From NCBI GenBank assembly GCA_028285655.1, contig JANQOT010000009.1, forward strand, positions 1-54,954: a stretch of 54,954 nucleotides of DNA. The letters are read 5' to 3'. Each line of letters starts with the position of its first letter. The stretch's first letter is position 1. The stretch comes from Gammaproteobacteria bacterium. Its GTDB lineage: Bacteria > Pseudomonadota > Gammaproteobacteria > UBA4575. Shown here in pieces: positions 2,925-43,512 of the stretch. Made by a program: the position numbers and the translations under genes. The notes below the pieces were generated by a model that searched no databases, was not told the DNA's origin, and worked only from the letters and a program-made list of their open reading frames with translations.

Positions 2925-3028
2925 GTGAGCACAAGGAGGTGCGAATGAGAGTTGCATCAGGGACGATGCTTCCGTTTAGAATTACTGCTCGCTTCAATGA
3001 CCGCTTTCGGGCCAAAAGCGGTCATTCG
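2925..3028 (+). repeat. B+A composite structured repeat (reference copy)
   Basis: Hairpin 1 is GCAC/AAGGAG/GTGC (2929-2942), followed by the linker GAATGAGAGTT. Hairpin 2 is GCATC/AGGGAC/GATGC (2954-2969). The A module is the perfect 12-bp palindrome AATGACCGCTTT-cgggcca-AAAGCGGTCATT (2996-3026). The stop codon of CDS 3022..3438 lies inside it. Confidence 0.8.
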
Positions 3029-3438
3029 TTTTCTTTAAATAATTCAACACAATGCATCACACACTCTTCACAAATTTGTGCGTTATCCCCTAGCCAAACT
3101 AGCCGACCAGCTTCTTTTTCAGAACACTTACAAAACTCACAGTAGCTATCTTCCTCAGTGCTTTCTATTCCTCGTTTCAGTTTTCTGGTAAAACGTGGAC
3201 TAGAGGCAACCTTTTCTTTTGATGGCGATATCCTTAATGAATCATCAAAATTAACAGATTCTTCAAGCCACTCTATGTATAGCAACCCAGGCTCTTTATC
3301 AGATATTCCAGATGCTCTAACTAGCGGCATTTCGTCTGAAACACCAAATGAAATATGAAGTTGTTTAAGTGTGCTAGGGCCAACAGTTGCTATTCTTTTT
3401 TCATTTAAATAAACATCGTAAAAACAATTTTTATCCAT
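3022..3438 (-). CDS. Hypothetical protein with C-terminal ClpX-type C4 zinc finger
   Basis: 138 aa. The C-terminal CEFCKCSEKEAGRLVWLGDNAQICEECVMHCVELF matches the ClpX N-terminal zinc-binding pattern (CxxC...CxxC). The N-terminal ~95 aa have no recognisable family. Confidence 0.65.
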   Translation of the reverse strand: MDKNCFYDVYLNEKRIATVGPSTLKQLHISFGVSDEMPLVRASGISDKEPGLLYIEWLEESVNFDDSLRISPSKEKVASSPRFTRKLKRGIESTEEDSYCEFCKCSEKEAGRLVWLGDNAQICEECVMHCVELFKENE

Positions 3439-3490
3439 AAATATTATCCTGGGATGCAGTACAGTAACTAGAATTATATGTTCGGTTTAC

Positions 3491-3510
3491 GGCCAATAGC
3501 GGTCATTCAG
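3491..3510 (+). repeat. A-module repeat (solo)
   Basis: GGCCAATAGCGGTCATTCAG lies 6 nt from the stop of CDS 3516..4934. Compare GGCCAAAAGCGGTCATTC at 3011, 24981 and 25471. Confidence 0.6.
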
Positions 3511-3515
3511 GATTA

Positions 3516-4934
3516 TTATCCGAAACGTCTTAGCCATTTGAATTTTGATAGTGTATACGGAGGGTATCGCAACGGTAAATCGCCAAACGTGGATTTTATT
3601 AAAACGGCTCTAGCATGACTAAATGTAATGAAACTATTTCTGCCATGGTAAGCGCCAACACCACTTTGACCGACACCTCCAAATGGTAGATCAGGTACAA
3701 CCATATGCATAAGTACATCGTTAATACAAACACCTCCCGAACTTGTCTCTGAAATTACATTGTTTTGAACTTCTTTATCTTTAGTGAATAGATATAATGC
3801 TAATGGCTTAGGCCGACTATTCACGAAACCAATTGCATCTTCGATGCCTGAAACCGATATTACAGGAAGAATAGGCCCAAAGATCTCTTCGCTCATAATT
3901 AGCGAATCAGTGGACACTTTGGTCAACACTGTAGGTTCGATATAGAGATCGGCTTCATCCGAGTGGCCACCACTCACAATTTCTCCACTGTCCATCAACC
4001 CGATGAGTCGTTCAAAATGTGCTTGATTGACTATCCTCGGATAATCAGGGCTTGTCTTCGGATCATTTCCATAAAAATCCGCCACTACCGACTTGATATG
4101 CTGCGTGAGATCATCAATTATTGATTCATGAGCCAGTACATAATCTGGAGCAACGCACGTCTGTCCAGCGTTGACAAATTTCCCCCATACGATTCGTTTA
4201 GCTGCTACACGTATATCGGCATCACTATTCACAATACACGGACTTTTGCCACCTAGTTCAAGTGTGACTGGCGTAAGGTGCTTAGCTGCGGCAGCCATTA
4301 CAATTTTGCCCACACGAGGGCTGCCTGTGAAGAAGATATGGTCAAAGCGTTGTTCGAGTAAATTGCTGGCTACATCTGCCCCTCCCTGTATAACTCTGAT
4401 GGCATCTGAATCCATATATTCAGGGATAATCTCCGCGAGTAATGATGAGGTGTTTGGCGTGAGTTCTGACGGTTTTATGAGCACGCAATTACCGGCTGCA
4501 ATAGCGCCAATTAGTGGCGATACAATCAACATAAAGGGGTAGTTCCATGGCGCCATAATTAATACGACACCAAGCGGTTCATATATAATCTTGCTTTTGC
4601 CTGGCTGATTGTCTATTGGTGTCGAGACAATTTCTGGTTTCATCCAGTTTTTTAAATGTTTCAAAGCATGATTGATCTCATTAACGCACTCACCTGTCTC
4701 CGCTATGAATGATTCAAAGTTTGATTTTCTGAGATCCGCTCTAAGAGCAGCGAAGATTGCTTCCTCCTTTTCTATCGTCATTGCTTTTAATGACTTGAGT
4801 TGATCGATGCGCCATTTATAAGGGCGCGTCTTACGACTTTTAAACGTCGTATGCAAATTTGCTACTGTTCTTGCGAAATTGGGTTGAGACATGTCATTTA
4901 TTCTCACTTTTGAAGCAACTGAGTTTCTATACAT
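3516..4934 (-). CDS. NAD(P)+-dependent aldehyde dehydrogenase (class 3-like)
   Basis: 472 aa. ALDH motifs are present: ELGGKSP, the catalytic region GQTCVAPDY, and EEIFGPILP. The alternative ATG at 4892 (MSQPNF) would give 458 aa. Confidence 0.88.
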   Translation of the reverse strand: MYRNSVASKVRINDMSQPNFARTVANLHTTFKSRKTRPYKWRIDQLKSLKAMTIEKEEAIFAALRADLRKSNFESFIAETGECVNEINHALKHLKNWMKPEIVSTPIDNQPGKSKIIYEPLGVVLIMAPWNYPFMLIVSPLIGAIAAGNCVLIKPSELTPNTSSLLAEIIPEYMDSDAIRVIQGGADVASNLLEQRFDHIFFTGSPRVGKIVMAAAAKHLTPVTLELGGKSPCIVNSDADIRVAAKRIVWGKFVNAGQTCVAPDYVLAHESIIDDLTQHIKSVVADFYGNDPKTSPDYPRIVNQAHFERLIGLMDSGEIVSGGHSDEADLYIEPTVLTKVSTDSLIMSEEIFGPILPVISVSGIEDAIGFVNSRPKPLALYLFTKDKEVQNNVISETSSGGVCINDVLMHMVVPDLPFGGVGQSGVGAYHGRNSFITFSHARAVLIKSTFGDLPLRYPPYTLSKFKWLRRFG

Positions 4935-5034
4935 GACCTAACGATTCGGTGGTCTGAGGTAAATTATTCAAATAAAGTTTTTTAATTATGACTTACATCA
5001 ATTTATTACTTAAATGGGTTACACAGAGATTCAG

Positions 5035-5183
5035 CGAATATGAGCGCGTCTTCCCTGACGCGACTCCAATTCGCACTTCCCTGTGCTCAGGTACGAAAGC
5101 GGACCTTCAATGAATATGAGCGCGTCTTCCCTGACGCGACTCCAATTCGCACTTCCCTGTGCTCTGGCACGAAAGCGGTTATG
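5035..5183 (-). repeat. Two tandem B-type repeats in opposite orientation to those at 2925 and 24899
   Basis: A 53-nt stretch, gaatatgagcgcgtcttccctgacgcgactccaattcgcacttccctgtgctc, is present identically at 5036-5088 and 5112-5164 (period 76). Each copy is followed by ACGAAAGCGG. Confidence 0.85.
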
Positions 5184-6368: not shown

Positions 6369-6462
6369 AATGACCGCTTTTGTTCGAAACCAGACATTAG
6401 TTCGCTTGCTATGCGGGCGCCATCCTTGGCGCCAACTTTCATTCGCGTATCCTTACGCTCAC
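6369..6462 (-). repeat. A+B composite repeat 3' of the plus-strand cassette
   Basis: AATGACCGCTTTTG starts 20 nt after the stop at 6349. The B part reads (reverse complement) GCGT/AAGGAT/ACGC, GAATGAAAGTT, GGCGCC/AAGGAT/GGCGCC. Both stems differ from the other copies but still pair. Confidence 0.75.
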
Positions 6463-6480
6463 GTGCTTGCACACATCTAT

Positions 6481-25470: not shown

Positions 25471-25490
25471 GGCCAAAAGCGGTCATTCAA
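25471..25490 (+). repeat. A-module repeat (solo)
   Basis: GGCCAAAAGCGGTCATTCAA lies 30 nt from the stop of CDS 25521..26654. It occupies the same position in the island as 3491-3510. Confidence 0.6.
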
Positions 25491-26719: not shown

Positions 26720-26883
26720 AATGTCTGCTATGGGTCGTTAGCAGACATTCATTGAATATGAACGCGTCCTCCCTGACGCGACTCCAATTCGCACGTCCAT
26801 GTGCTCTGGTACGAAAGCGGGCATTCGCAATTATGCTCGTGTCCTTCATGACACGACTTCAATTCGCATATTCCCATGCTCAG
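26720..26883 (-). repeat. Hairpin plus two tandem B-type repeats in opposite orientation, right edge of island 2
   Basis: AATGTCTGC-tatgggtcgtta-GCAGACATT is the hairpin. B copy 26754-26828 ends in ACGAAAGCGGGCATTCGC. B copy 26829-26883 has stems GCAT/ATGC and TCGTGTC/GACACGA. Confidence 0.8.
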
Positions 26884-27031
26884 ATCAAAAACTGATTTTT
26901 CTATTTTATCCTGAAATTGGTTTCAATATGCAATATTTGCTCAGAATTAACGAGCATGGGGAGGGATTGTCTATGGAAGAGAGGGTAAACCGAGCACCAA
27001 ACTAAATTCAGTGCTCGGTTTAGACGAGAGT

Positions 27032-40999: not shown

Positions 41000-42010
41000 A
41001 TGGAATTTATTTCAGATTACGGTTTGTTTTTGGCAAAAGCGGCCACCATTGTTGTTGTTGTCTGGGTGGTATTGTCGATGCTGGTATCTTTTGCACACAA
41101 ACAACACGAACATGACCAAATAGAAATAAAAAATCTGAATAAAAAATTTGAAGACACCAGGCTGCAAATGCAGCAAAGCTTGTTATCCAAGAAAGAATCC
41201 AAGGAATTACTTAAGCAATCGAAAAAAGAAAACAAGAAAAAACAAAAAGAGCAAAGTGGTGACCGAAAACGTGTATTCGTTTTGAACTTCGTCGGCAATA
41301 TCAAGGCGAGTGCAGTTAAACATCTACGCAAGGAAATCACGGCCTTGTTATCGGTGGCGACTCCGGCAGATGAAATCGTTGTGTGTCTGGAAAACTCGGG
41401 TGGGCTGGTGCATGAGCATGGCTTTGCGGCATCGCAGTTGCAGCGAATTCGACAACGTGAAATTCCCCTGACGGTGGCAGTGGACAAGGTGGCGGCCAGC
41501 GGCGGCTATATGATGGCCTGTGTCGCAAATCGAATTGTAGCGGCGCCGTTTTCGATTATCGGCTCGGTCGGCGTATTGGCGCAGTTGCCTAACTTTATTC
41601 GACTGCTGGAAAAGCATGGAATCGATTTTGAGCAAGTAAAAGCCGGTGATTTAAAACGCACTTTGACAATGTTTGGTAAAAATACTGATGAAGACCGTGC
41701 GCGACTTACCGAGCAAATGGAAGAAACGCATGAATTATTCAAGGAATTTATTGCCGAACAGCGTGAGGTGGTTGATGTGCAGGCGATTGCGACCGGCGAA
41801 CATTGGCTGGGAAAGCGGGCGCTGGAGCTAAAGCTGGTGGACGAACTTATTACCAGCGATGATTATCTGCTGCGCCAAAGTGAGCACGCCGATATCTATG
41901 AAGTTAAACACGCGGCACCGAAAACTATTAGTGAGAAACTATCAAGCAGCGTGCAAATGGCGTTTGAGAAAGTGTTGACCGCCTGGTGGCAGCGCAATAT
42001 CACCGGTTGA
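41000..42010 (+). CDS. sohB: Peptidase S49 family protease SohB
   Basis: 336 aa. N-terminal TM, Lys-rich linker, S49 core (AASGGYMMAC...GSVGV). Confidence 0.85.
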   Translation: MEFISDYGLFLAKAATIVVVVWVVLSMLVSFAHKQHEHDQIEIKNLNKKFEDTRLQMQQSLLSKKESKELLKQSKKENKKKQKEQSGDRKRVFVLNFVGNIKASAVKHLRKEITALLSVATPADEIVVCLENSGGLVHEHGFAASQLQRIRQREIPLTVAVDKVAASGGYMMACVANRIVAAPFSIIGSVGVLAQLPNFIRLLEKHGIDFEQVKAGDLKRTLTMFGKNTDEDRARLTEQMEETHELFKEFIAEQREVVDVQAIATGEHWLGKRALELKLVDELITSDDYLLRQSEHADIYEVKHAAPKTISEKLSSSVQMAFEKVLTAWWQRNITG

Positions 42011-42015
42011 GATTT

Positions 42016-43512
42016 TTAAACGCCGGGAATAAGCAGTTTTTGGCCGACGCGAATTTTGTCGGACTGCAAAGAATTTACGCTGCGCAAGGAATCAAGACTG
42101 ACACGGTAGCGGAGCGCGATGCCCGATAGAGTTTCGCCTGGTCGAATAACATGTTTTTCTTTGGGTGTGCGTTTGGCGATGATTGCATTGTCCGGTGCAT
42201 GCTTATCCATGTAGGTTCTTACGCCGCGAAATATAGAATTTGCCAGTTTTTGTTGATGCTCCGCAGAACGCAGTTTCTTTTCTTCGGACGCGTTGGAAAT
42301 AAACGCAGTTTCGACCAGTATCGACGGAATGTCCGGTAGTTTAAGCACTACAAAACCGGCATGCTCGATACGCTTGCGGGTTTTTCCAATGTTGCCTAGT
42401 TCTTTGAGTACACTTTTGGCCAGATCCATGCTGGCATCGATAGTGGCGGTTTGCGACAGATCGACGATTACTTTTTGCAATACTTTATCTTTGCCTTCCA
42501 GGCTGACGCCGCCAATCACGTCGGATCGATTATGGCGTTGAGCGAGAATTTTCGCGGCCTCACTGCTGGCGCCATTTTTTGAAAGCACGTATACCGACGA
42601 ACCTCGGACGCGGCGATCGTCGATTGCATCGGCGTGCACCGAAACAAATACATCGGCGTTGTTATCACGCGCTTTTTTAATGCGGCCACGCAAGGTAAGA
42701 AAACGGTCTGAGTCCCGGGTTAACACTGCGCGCATGCCGGGTTCGGCGTTAATTAAACGCACCAGACGTTTGGAAATTTGTAGCACAACATCCTTTTCGC
42801 GAGTGCCGGCATAGCCAATCGCACCGGGATCCTTGCCGCCGTGGCCCGGGTCGACTGCAACCACGAAATCTCGGGCTTTAGCGCTGGCGACCTTGGATTT
42901 TTTGGGCGCGGCGGGTTTTTTCTTTGCTTTGGGCGTGGTGACTTGCGCAATAATATCTTTTTTAGGCGCCGCTTTTTTTGTTGCAGTTTTCTTGGGTGCC
43001 GCGGCAACGGTTTTTTTCTTGCTTGCCGTTACCGTCTTTTTCTTCGGTGTTGTTTTTATCGGTGCTTTAGCGAGTCTGGTTTTAACTTGCGCGCCTTTTA
43101 AATCCAGTACCAGGCGATGATTGGCGCCGTCGTGCGGAGGCAGTACAAAGCTTTTCGGAATAATTTGTTGATTCAGATCCAGCACCACACGGAGTTTGTT
43201 CTGGTCGCGTGTTGCGTGGCGCAGCTTTGCAACATGCGAAGCTTTGAACAGCGATTGATTAACCTTGGTGGTGAGCTTGCTGTCGCTGAAATCGATTACG
43301 ATTCTGCTCGGATTGTTGAGGGTAAAAATCTTGTATTTCGGAATACCTTCGGTATCAAAGACCACTCGTGTAATTTCGCCGCTTTTGGCCACTCGAATGT
43401 TTTTAATATCATTGGCGGCAGTGGCGGTCCCCATGCTAAAGCACAGGCATAACAATAGCGCCATTGTTGTGACGGTATAGCTGCGAATAGTGGCGAACTT
43501 CAGATGAAGCAT
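42016..43512 (-). CDS. amiB: N-acetylmuramoyl-L-alanine amidase (AMIN domain, Amidase_3, C-terminal LysM)
   Basis: 498 aa. AMIN-like N-terminus, Lys/Ala/Pro linker, VVAVDPGHGGKDPGA...SVHAD amidase_3 core, LysM tail (HVIRPGETLSGIA...). Located between tsaE and mutL as amiB is in E. coli. Confidence 0.88.
   Translation of the reverse strand: MLHLKFATIRSYTVTTMALLLCLCFSMGTATAANDIKNIRVAKSGEITRVVFDTEGIPKYKIFTLNNPSRIVIDFSDSKLTTKVNQSLFKASHVAKLRHATRDQNKLRVVLDLNQQIIPKSFVLPPHDGANHRLVLDLKGAQVKTRLAKAPIKTTPKKKTVTASKKKTVAAAPKKTATKKAAPKKDIIAQVTTPKAKKKPAAPKKSKVASAKARDFVVAVDPGHGGKDPGAIGYAGTREKDVVLQISKRLVRLINAEPGMRAVLTRDSDRFLTLRGRIKKARDNNADVFVSVHADAIDDRRVRGSSVYVLSKNGASSEAAKILAQRHNRSDVIGGVSLEGKDKVLQKVIVDLSQTATIDASMDLAKSVLKELGNIGKTRKRIEHAGFVVLKLPDIPSILVETAFISNASEEKKLRSAEHQQKLANSIFRGVRTYMDKHAPDNAIIAKRTPKEKHVIRPGETLSGIALRYRVSLDSLRSVNSLQSDKIRVGQKLLIPGV

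Follow-up and report, generated by a model that had tools for sequence, protein, structure and literature searches.

The stretch of DNA analyzed here (hereafter, the window) spans positions 1 to 54,954 (54,954 nt) of the forward strand of contig JANQOT010000009.1, from the Gammaproteobacteria bacterium assembly GCA_028285655.1 (GTDB lineage UBA4575). Two repeats occur between its genes: B, a single strand folded into two adjacent hairpins with GGA in each loop, and A, a 30-nt palindrome that often stands beside it. B is the core of a ~105-nt multi-copy intergenic element found in a low-GC, uncultured gammaproteobacterial lineage. The core gene block of the window (rnr, dnaB, mutL, hflX, purA and others) is mostly 46–58% GC and carries no copy of either repeat. 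The B copies lie only in lower-GC stretches, at 1–7 kb (38–43% GC, beside tRNA-Met) and 19.7–27 kb (36–46% GC, beside tRNA-Leu). A search of the window with Rfam models at gathering thresholds returned two tRNAs only.

A covariance model (R1) identified nine copies of B in the window, with E-values from 5e-21 to 3e-6 and, for a decayed copy at 2213–2259, of 0.07. All are intergenic, with no overlap of open reading frames (ORFs), and two matches to a 27-nt B consensus, against 0.00 expected, lie far above chance. Read on the GGA strand, every copy has the layout GAG-stem1-A.GGA.-stem1′-CGAAT...AGT-stem2-A.GGA.-stem2′. The plus-strand copy at 2921–2976 (71.6 bits, E 5e-21) is composed of hairpin 1 (GCAC-AAGGAG-GTGC), the linker GCGAATGAGAGT and hairpin 2 (GCATC-AGGGAC-GATGC). 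A degenerate A 5′ arm and loop, CTACTTACGACCAATTA, recognized by comparing upstream flanks, lies directly 5′ of it, and an A hairpin detected by nhmmer (2996–3026, plus strand; AATGACCGCTTT-CGGGCCA-AAAGCGGTCATT), whose 12-bp stem agrees with the predicted fold, stands 20 nt 3′ of it. A hairpins also follow the plus-strand copy at 24895–24950 (68.9 bits; A at 24971–24999) and the minus-strand copy at 6410–6466 (52.2 bits; stems GCGT/ACGC and GGCGCC/GGCGCC; A at 6369–6398). Four further copies form two tandem pairs on the minus strand. The pair at 5039–5170 (units 5039–5094 and 5115–5170; 63.6 and 60.2 bits; 76-nt period), upstream of an aldehyde dehydrogenase gene, is of a short variant in which each unit is an A 5′ arm, CCGCTTTCGTRCC, and then B, giving four GGA hairpins in total with a folding z-score of -4.7. 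The pair at 26757–26887 (units 26757–26812 and 26832–26887; 60.3 and 47.9 bits) has weakened loops in the unit at 26832–26887 (GGGAAT, ATGAAG) and is followed by an A hairpin at 26720–26749. Two plus-strand copies are degenerate: that at 24414–24469 (27.2 bits, E 3e-6), with hairpin 2 intact and hairpin 1 decayed, and the weak match at 2213–2259 (GCATAGCGATGTGCGAATAAGAGCCTGAATCAGGGAAAACGC; 13.9 bits, E 0.07), which lies in a GGA-rich intergenic region.

The initial annotation of the window had listed copies of B by position and stem sequence, and a check against the sequence located every one of them, with the qualification that the copy at 24414–24469 keeps hairpin 2 only. Hairpin 1 is GCAC/GTGC at 2929, 24903, 5036–5088, 5112–5164 and 26794–26807, GCGT/ACGC at 6445–6458 and GCAT/ATGC at 26863–26876. 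Hairpin 2 is GCATC/GATGC at 2954 and 24441, GCGTC/GACGC at 24928, GGCGCC/GGCGCC at 6416–6433, TCGCGTC/GACGCG in the 5043 copies and TCGTGTC/GACACGA at 26832–26851.

Because the window copies were too few for a covariation test, we gathered copies elsewhere (collected loci and contigs carry L numbers below). GTDB genomes were scanned with a pattern in which only GAGC, GGA, GCGAAT and AGT were fixed; these 16 fixed bases proved too loose, and the at least 119 loci returned were mostly chance matches, from which true copies were sorted out by nhmmer and the covariance model. At least 38 or so of the GTDB loci listed are true copies by nhmmer, and the metagenome-assembled genomes that host them, at least 11 at species level, are all labelled Gammaproteobacteria or Thiotrichales. 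B-bearing genomes include OZ241890.1, CBDEUS01, CBDCUI01, CBDCTA01, JANQOB01 and JBCCEI01. A stricter pattern applied to metagenome contigs added 21 loci. With model R1, ~80 copies were found in the ~0.42 Mb searched, which comprised uncultured gammaproteobacterial genomes and metagenomes, and the density reached nine copies per 55 kb in the window and six in the 5.6-kb contig L137. No copy of B was found in the IMG/VR viral contigs and PLSDB plasmids searched.

The two-hairpin structure was imposed on a MAFFT alignment of 42 B copies (alignment A1), with 500 shuffles and slid pairing partners as controls. In this alignment 87.7% of cells were paired, against 74.3% after shuffling, and 77 cells carried double changes, against 22; none of the 500 shuffles reached either value. 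The covariation score was 0.433, compared with 0.18 in shuffles and at most 0.124 with slid partners. A MAFFT alignment of 26 extra copies that had been absent from model building (A3) behaved alike, with 83.3% of cells paired (control, 74.0%), 37 double-change cells (control, 14) and a score of 0.337, compared with 0.153 in shuffles and at most 0.142 with slid partners. Neither the inner two pairs of hairpin 1 nor any part of hairpin 2 was constrained by the collecting pattern, so the search did not impose pairing at those columns. The proposal made from the window alone, that the stems change in compensatory pairs, is borne out in both the 42 and the 26 copies, where pairing and double changes exceed those of the shuffled controls. 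In A1 the exchanges at individual pairs were A-U 25, G-C 11 and C-G 4 at positions 11-20; C-G 31, U-A 6 and U-G 4 at 12-19; A-U 32 and G-C 9 at 37-48; U-A 24, A-U 16 and C-G 2 at 38-47; and U-A 13, C-G 10 and A-U 5 at 33-51. RNAalifold, given 26 full-length elements without any structure input, recovered the same two hairpins. Their robust core is 4 bp in hairpin 1 (96–98% paired) and 5 bp in hairpin 2, whose outer three pairs form in some copies only, for a total of 5–8 bp. No basal stem enclosing both hairpins was predicted by RNAalifold in the 26 full composites; such a stem is feasible in the first window copy, and we rejected it because it is not conserved in other copies.

What stays constant while the stems change is the loops and the linker: GGA is conserved in 94–100% of 68 copies in both loops, and GCGAAT of the linker in 97–100%. 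As the initial annotation had argued, this combination points to a folded single strand, of RNA or of single-stranded DNA, rather than to a double-stranded site. An array of palindromic operators bound by a dimeric protein on double-stranded DNA would account for each hairpin being a short palindrome and for the intergenic position of the copies, but we consider it scarcely credible, as the half-sites vary as long as they remain complementary while the non-palindromic ANGGAN centers and the asymmetric linker are conserved, the reverse of what is seen in operators, and as divergent regions, which contain promoters, are avoided (4 of 62 copies).

The conserved loops resemble binding sites of CsrA, an RNA-binding regulator. 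In the same 68 copies, the first loop base is A in 85–94%, C-G closes the loop, and a pyrimidine stands last in it in 76–82%; the second base is a pyrimidine in ~41–53%, which makes the consensus ANGGAY and not strictly AYGGAY. Together with the closing pair, both hexaloops read C-A-N-G-G-A-N-G. The motif CANGGANG occurs in hairpin 1 of 51 of the 68 copies, in hairpin 2 of 51 and in both hairpins of 39, and 11 of the 12 hairpins in the window that carry it lie within B copies. Systematic evolution of ligands by exponential enrichment (SELEX) with CsrA yielded the consensus RUACARGGAUGU, in which ACA and GGA do not vary and a hairpin loop presents GGA (PMC4347634). The commonest B sequences agree with this consensus at 10 of 12 positions in hairpin 1 (GCACAUGGAUGUGC) and at 11 of 12 in hairpin 2 (GCAACAGGGAUGUUGC). 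The two GGA motifs of B are always 26 nt apart, a distance within reach of the dual-site binding of one CsrA dimer. Beneath hairpin 1, in GUGA...GAAU, G7 and A8 stand opposite G23 and A24 as a tandem G.A, 94–100% conserved and flanked by U6-A25 and G5.U26.

Some loci depart from the two-hairpin plan. At L123 1915–1985, L134 100–170, L035 1440–1460 and L057 7615–7630, an extra half or whole GGA hairpin, GAGCGCATGGATG..., is fused 5′ of hairpin 1, which results in three consecutive GGA loops. The region around the decayed window copy, 2170–2400 on the plus strand within a 467-nt intergenic region, is GGA-rich and holds AGCAGGAGGTGGC and ACAAGGATGCAC in addition to the decayed B, as well as a clean CANGGANG hairpin, GAGC-ACGGAT-GCTC, at 2342–2356. 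Two candidate readings are a multi-hairpin variant in decay and a Csr-type small RNA of its own; Rfam models gave zero matches to 1960–2460 even at E-values up to 10.

The A repeat is a palindrome of the form AATG.CCGCT-loop-AGCGG.CATT, with either TTCGGCCAAT or AACGACCCAA as its loop, and forms a 10–12-bp hairpin with a G+C core and A-rich and T-rich flanks. It lies 8–37 nt downstream of 46 of 78 B copies, mostly at ~20 nt. Conversely, 50 of 91 A sites have a B in the same orientation upstream, at 13–133 nt and again mostly ~20 nt, and A stands alone at 35. In the window, A hairpins without B are found on the plus strand at 3478–3508, the 3′ end of the aldehyde dehydrogenase gene, where the hairpin is conserved in contig L141, and at 25458–25488 (nhmmer). 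The B-A composite measures 100–115 nt in 45 of 46 cases and 129 nt in the remaining one. A second form of coupling is seen on the 5′ side: in about one-third of copies, an A 5′ arm with its loop comes directly before B, the two meeting in every case where the loop ends (...CCAATA|GTGAGC), and under a strict match this arrangement is present in at least 17 of 76 copies compared with 0.5% of random positions. In L054, L137 and L104 the result is a tandem array in which units of A 5′ arm and loop, B and spacer are repeated and closed by a full A. The window arrays at 5039–5170 and 26757–26887 are a short variant, in which B lies within the A loop and the last B stem runs into the A 3′ arm.

Among the 91 A sites there are also inverted doublets, 50–60 nt apart, with one copy of each loop variant, in the manner of REPINs. 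Doublets lie at L138 1576–1688 and 2541–2652, L054 126–228, L131 943–1052, L106 7046–7133 and L061 2407–2519. Solitary at many sites and paired in inverted doublets, A therefore behaves like a REP/REPIN repeat. In columns aligned with MAFFT and folded with RNAalifold, the A hairpin read on the GGA strand has 13 U.G pairs and 2 C.A pairs, which favours folding of the GGA strand, with the proviso that related copies are not independent; a brute-force wobble count on A was discarded because it was biased by its own scoring. We also rejected a reading of B as a 5′ leader, in which AGGTGA would be a ribosome site and the ATG of A would open a mini-ORF (MSAFGQ*), because the second loop variant of A lacks the stop codon and only about half of the spacers contain the AGGTGA block.

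Comparison with relatives revealed sites that differ by the presence of B. The aldehyde dehydrogenase segment of the window (3477–5033) is 86% identical in DNA sequence over 1578 nt, including the A hairpin at its 3′ end, to L141, a 331-kb metagenome contig of 37% GC. Upstream of that gene, L141 has an intact A hairpin exactly where the window has two units of A arm and B, and homology of the flanks restarts at TGAATC. No B was found in the 21 kb of L141 that we examined; in loop subtype, its A hairpins agree with those of B-carrying contigs of the same sample series. The lower-GC placement of the window copies and the 86% match to a contig of 37% GC suggest, as far as sequence comparison can tell, that these copies arrived on horizontally acquired DNA. 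Conversely, B-A units lie between sohB and amiB in L128 and L058; in the window these two genes are convergent and 5 nt apart. Window positions 41000–43512 were compared here with L128 3177–5012 and with L058; the relatives have more than 1 kb between sohB and the amiB-like gene, with two B-A units facing each other. One locus, L054, has one tandem unit more than its relative L014.

Other copies are retained. B stands at the same gene end in both members of nine locus pairs drawn from different species; the flanking genes are ~67–88% identical. Between the members of these pairs, 17 of 81 stem pairs show a compensatory double change and 10 differ otherwise. Of 216 conserved unpaired sites compared, 34 differ, and most of these are loop N positions.

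The insertion polymorphism can also be read at the level of DNA alone. B and A would then be a mobile repeat, REP/REPIN-like or derived from IS200/IS605 elements (PATE/MITE type), whose single-stranded DNA hairpins are recognized by a Y1 (HUH)/RAYT transposase encoded elsewhere; covariation would come from master copies that keep their hairpins for mobility, GGA would be a transposase contact, and the match to CsrA sites would be a coincidence. A mobility reading of this kind is suggested by B lying inside A palindromes, the tandem arrays, presence and absence among relatives and the lack of orientation bias in co-directional gaps. It gains further from the high copy density, the fixed period of the arrays, the precise B/A joint between loop and 3′ arm at many independent loci, the intact A in L141 where the window has A and two B units, the units at sohB/amiB opposite the 5-nt gap, and the REPIN-like doublets. 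Several observations run the other way. A tblastn search with E. coli YafM and IS200 TnpA queries found no RAYT or IS200-type transposase in the window and collected loci (~0.45 Mb, a small sample of the genomes). The REP-type 5′ tetranucleotide (GTAG, or GT[AG]G) is not conserved: the bases 5′ of GTGAGC vary (TAG, GAG, TGG or GTG, among others), and A itself begins AATG. A transposase site would not predict two hairpins 26 nt apart, each with the exact CsrA consensus down to the covarying A/U...U/A flank, nor do the persistence of copies at orthologous sites and the absence of the element from the plasmid and viral collections fit readily. On this evidence we regard a purely DNA-level repeat as the main rival reading and a serious one, though less likely than not.

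The initial annotation had likened B to attC sites and to the ends of IS200/IS605 elements. The resemblance is one of principle, in that all are folded single-strand substrates with co-varying stems and with insertion at a defined point beside a hairpin, which for B is a constant junction with A just past the loop; it did not hold up as membership, and the architectures appear to differ. No pair of left-end and right-end hairpins around a cargo was identified in B, and no transposase or integrase was found nearby. We rejected attC identity because attC is one long bulged hairpin with R″/L″ and L′/R′ core sites, whereas B is two short hairpins with A as a third. Rfam searches returned no match to attC or to any other family, and no integrase was found among the flanking genes examined, all of them ordinary genes of metabolism or of the core set.

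The placement of the copies, counted from crude ORF calls, is far from even. Of 62 copies, 31 lie between convergent genes and four between divergent genes, and 27 lie in co-directional gaps, with 15 sense and 12 antisense. About 20 copies start -7 to +4 nt from the stop codon of the upstream gene, which is a TAG or TGA inside TAGTGAGC, and the downstream gene faces B in 50 of 70 copies. At several loci the B-A composite occupies the entire gap between two convergent genes. B thus favours gene 3′ ends and avoids promoter regions. An apparent orientation bias (B and the upstream gene in the same sense in 52 of 70 copies) was rejected as such; it is mostly a by-product of the preference for convergent over divergent gaps and so is no proof of RNA function.

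This placement would also suit a 3′-end RNA element with no link to CsrA, in which B and A stabilize transcripts against exonucleases, act as a weak bidirectional terminator or mark a processing site, and GGA is merely part of a stable loop. The downstream genes that face B, the ~20 copies that abut an upstream stop codon, the composites that fill whole convergent intergenic spaces, and the G+C-cored hairpin of A with its A-rich and T-rich flanks all agree with it. We nevertheless consider it quite improbable: A has no free U-tract, as the flanking AAT/ATT pair into its stem, a separate canonical terminator precedes the L054 array, 12 co-directional copies are antisense, and stability alone would not explain an invariant GGA in both loops together with a conserved linker.

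The closest known family to B is the TwoAYGGAY RNA motif (Rfam RF01731), described by Weinberg et al. in 2010 (PMC2864571). TwoAYGGAY RNAs have two hairpins with AYGGAY loops, tandem GAs in the stem and a match to the CsrA motif (PMC4333381). In Pseudomonas the motif is multi-copy, with REP arrays at a fixed downstream position; its extended structure, with a 3′ pseudoknot, and upstream arrays of 5–6-mers have been described, its expansion has been called mobile-element-like and a role as a Csr/Rsm sponge has been proposed, with the link between mobility and regulation left unresolved (bioRxiv 10.64898/2026.09.22.753630). B shares with this family two successive hairpins with A-N/Y-GGA-Y terminal loops (A-N-GGA-N in B), the tandem G.A, loops of the CsrA type, many copies in each genome, within Pseudomonadota in both cases, a downstream REP-type repeat whose position is fixed (B is attached to A as TwoAYGGAY is to REP arrays in P. 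fluorescens SBW25), variants with extra GGA hairpins and a mobile-element-like expansion. It differs in lacking a common basal stem, in having a purine as second loop base in about half of its copies, in being able to sit inside the loop of a REP-like hairpin, and in its hosts, an uncultured low-GC gammaproteobacterial lineage. B is simpler and either independently evolved or strongly diverged, in another lineage. The first 50 kb of pQBR103 yielded no TwoAYGGAY copy for direct comparison.

Two other systems resemble parts of the composite. The Csr/Rsm sponges (CsrB and CsrC; RsmX, RsmY and RsmZ) likewise carry GGA hexaloops closed by C-G, with B matching the CsrA consensus at 10–11 of 12 positions; the spacing of the two sites of B could let one dimer bridge them, and tandem arrays provide 4–6 hairpins. 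In contrast to these sponges, B is present as dozens of dispersed copies and not as one dedicated small RNA gene. We rejected the idea that B is itself a CsrB/Rsm-type gene, as scans revealed neither a GacA box nor a promoter and coding sequence directly adjoins many of the copies. A shares with REP and REPIN sequences a 30-nt extragenic imperfect palindrome, high copy number, inverted doublets and a location at gene 3′ ends, whereas B differs from REPs in being two short hairpins with conserved loops and not a single palindrome.

As the most likely reading we propose, by analogy with TwoAYGGAY, that B is an RNA module with two CsrA/Rsm sites that is linked to a REP-like palindrome and spreads by way of it, and we judge this proposal about evenly balanced between right and wrong. 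The present data do not settle the choice between RNA and single-stranded DNA as the functional form. We infer RNA from the CsrA-consensus loops, the tandem G.A, the excess of U.G over C.A pairs in A and the retention of copies at orthologous gene 3′ ends; the binding of B by CsrA and its mode of movement are likewise what we infer. B would be transcribed, in most cases as a tail to the gene upstream, and each copy would offer two high-affinity sites to one dimer of the CsrA/Rsm family, so that tandem arrays may resemble small sponges of the CsrB/RsmZ kind. Coupling to A takes two forms, with A following B at ~20 nt or with B placed in the A loop beside the 3′ arm; the latter arrangement could generate the tandem units, and the element would multiply like a non-autonomous mobile repeat. 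A more specific version, which we advance tentatively and hold doubtful, is that B is non-autonomous and spreads high-affinity CsrA/Rsm sites by inserting into REP-like loops at gene ends, where the copies would serve as a distributed sponge tunable by copy number or place individual mRNAs under Csr control.

A number of results weigh against the RNA module proposed here. RF01731 gave no match to B at the gathering score in the window, at E-values up to 1 in four loci, or at E-values up to 10 in segments of 901 nt and 136 nt, and together with the missing basal stem this leads us to class B as a TwoAYGGAY-like variant and not as a demonstrated member. The Rfam models of CsrB and of the Rsm small RNAs matched neither the window nor the copies, at gathering or relaxed thresholds. 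No csrA gene was found by tblastn in ~0.45 Mb of the window and B-bearing genomes, a sample too small to be informative. No GacA/UvrY box (TGTAAG-N6-CTTACA) occurs near any copy, and promoter-like sites near the window copies are no more frequent than in shuffles. The core pairs of B give 6 G.U against 6 A.C and are uninformative on the strand, and the 15 sense and 12 antisense copies in co-directional gaps indicate no clear selection of the mRNA strand. Decay of B is seen in one L003 copy and in the window copy at 24414. In L054, a canonical terminator, AAAAAAAGCCAGCGGAAGCTGGCTTTTTT, lies at ~760–800 on the minus strand between the upstream gene and the B array, which places that array beyond the normal transcript end.

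A csrA gene (PF02599) does occur at L146 4479–4673, 2.6 kb 5′ of a homologue of the aldehyde dehydrogenase gene, in a metagenome contig of 47% GC. L146 has no A or B repeats, so its csrA is uninformative on the hosts of B.

TwoAYGGAY has been without a known function since 2010, and B offers a simple test case, with only two CsrA-type hairpins and one palindrome, a junction between hairpin and palindrome resolved to a single base, and a matched B-free site in a close relative that holds an intact A only. These properties make both the binding of CsrA to such repeats and their route of entry into REP hairpins testable. If B acts as RNA, dozens to hundreds of dispersed CsrA sites would alter the view of Csr titration in such genomes. 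If it also spreads through REP loops, REP-type mobility and post-transcriptional regulation would for the first time be linked mechanistically, and the unresolved biology of TwoAYGGAY would be explained as well.

Minor features were noted in the collected loci and the window. A conserved non-coding block at L003 ~3750–3880 and L129 ~3060–3180 ends in a minus-strand intrinsic terminator (GGCCGTCT...AGACGGCC then T8) preceded by CATGTTGTTATTCTCGACTCCTCCTGGATTC, and is probably an unrelated small RNA. Just 3′ of tRNA-Met in the window, a 48-nt direct repeat (109–156 and 218–265; 79% identical) includes the palindrome CATGGCGTAGCCATTCC. At 19625–20078, tRNA-Leu (CAG) is followed by two more copies of its 3′ end with ~80 nt of flank, at a spacing of 163 nt (3′-end copies at 19695–19736, 19858–19899 and 20021–20062; longer repeats at 19795–19875 and 19958–20038). 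These repeats resemble a stack of att-site remnants left by integrations at the tRNA, and the 7 kb that follow them are of lower GC.

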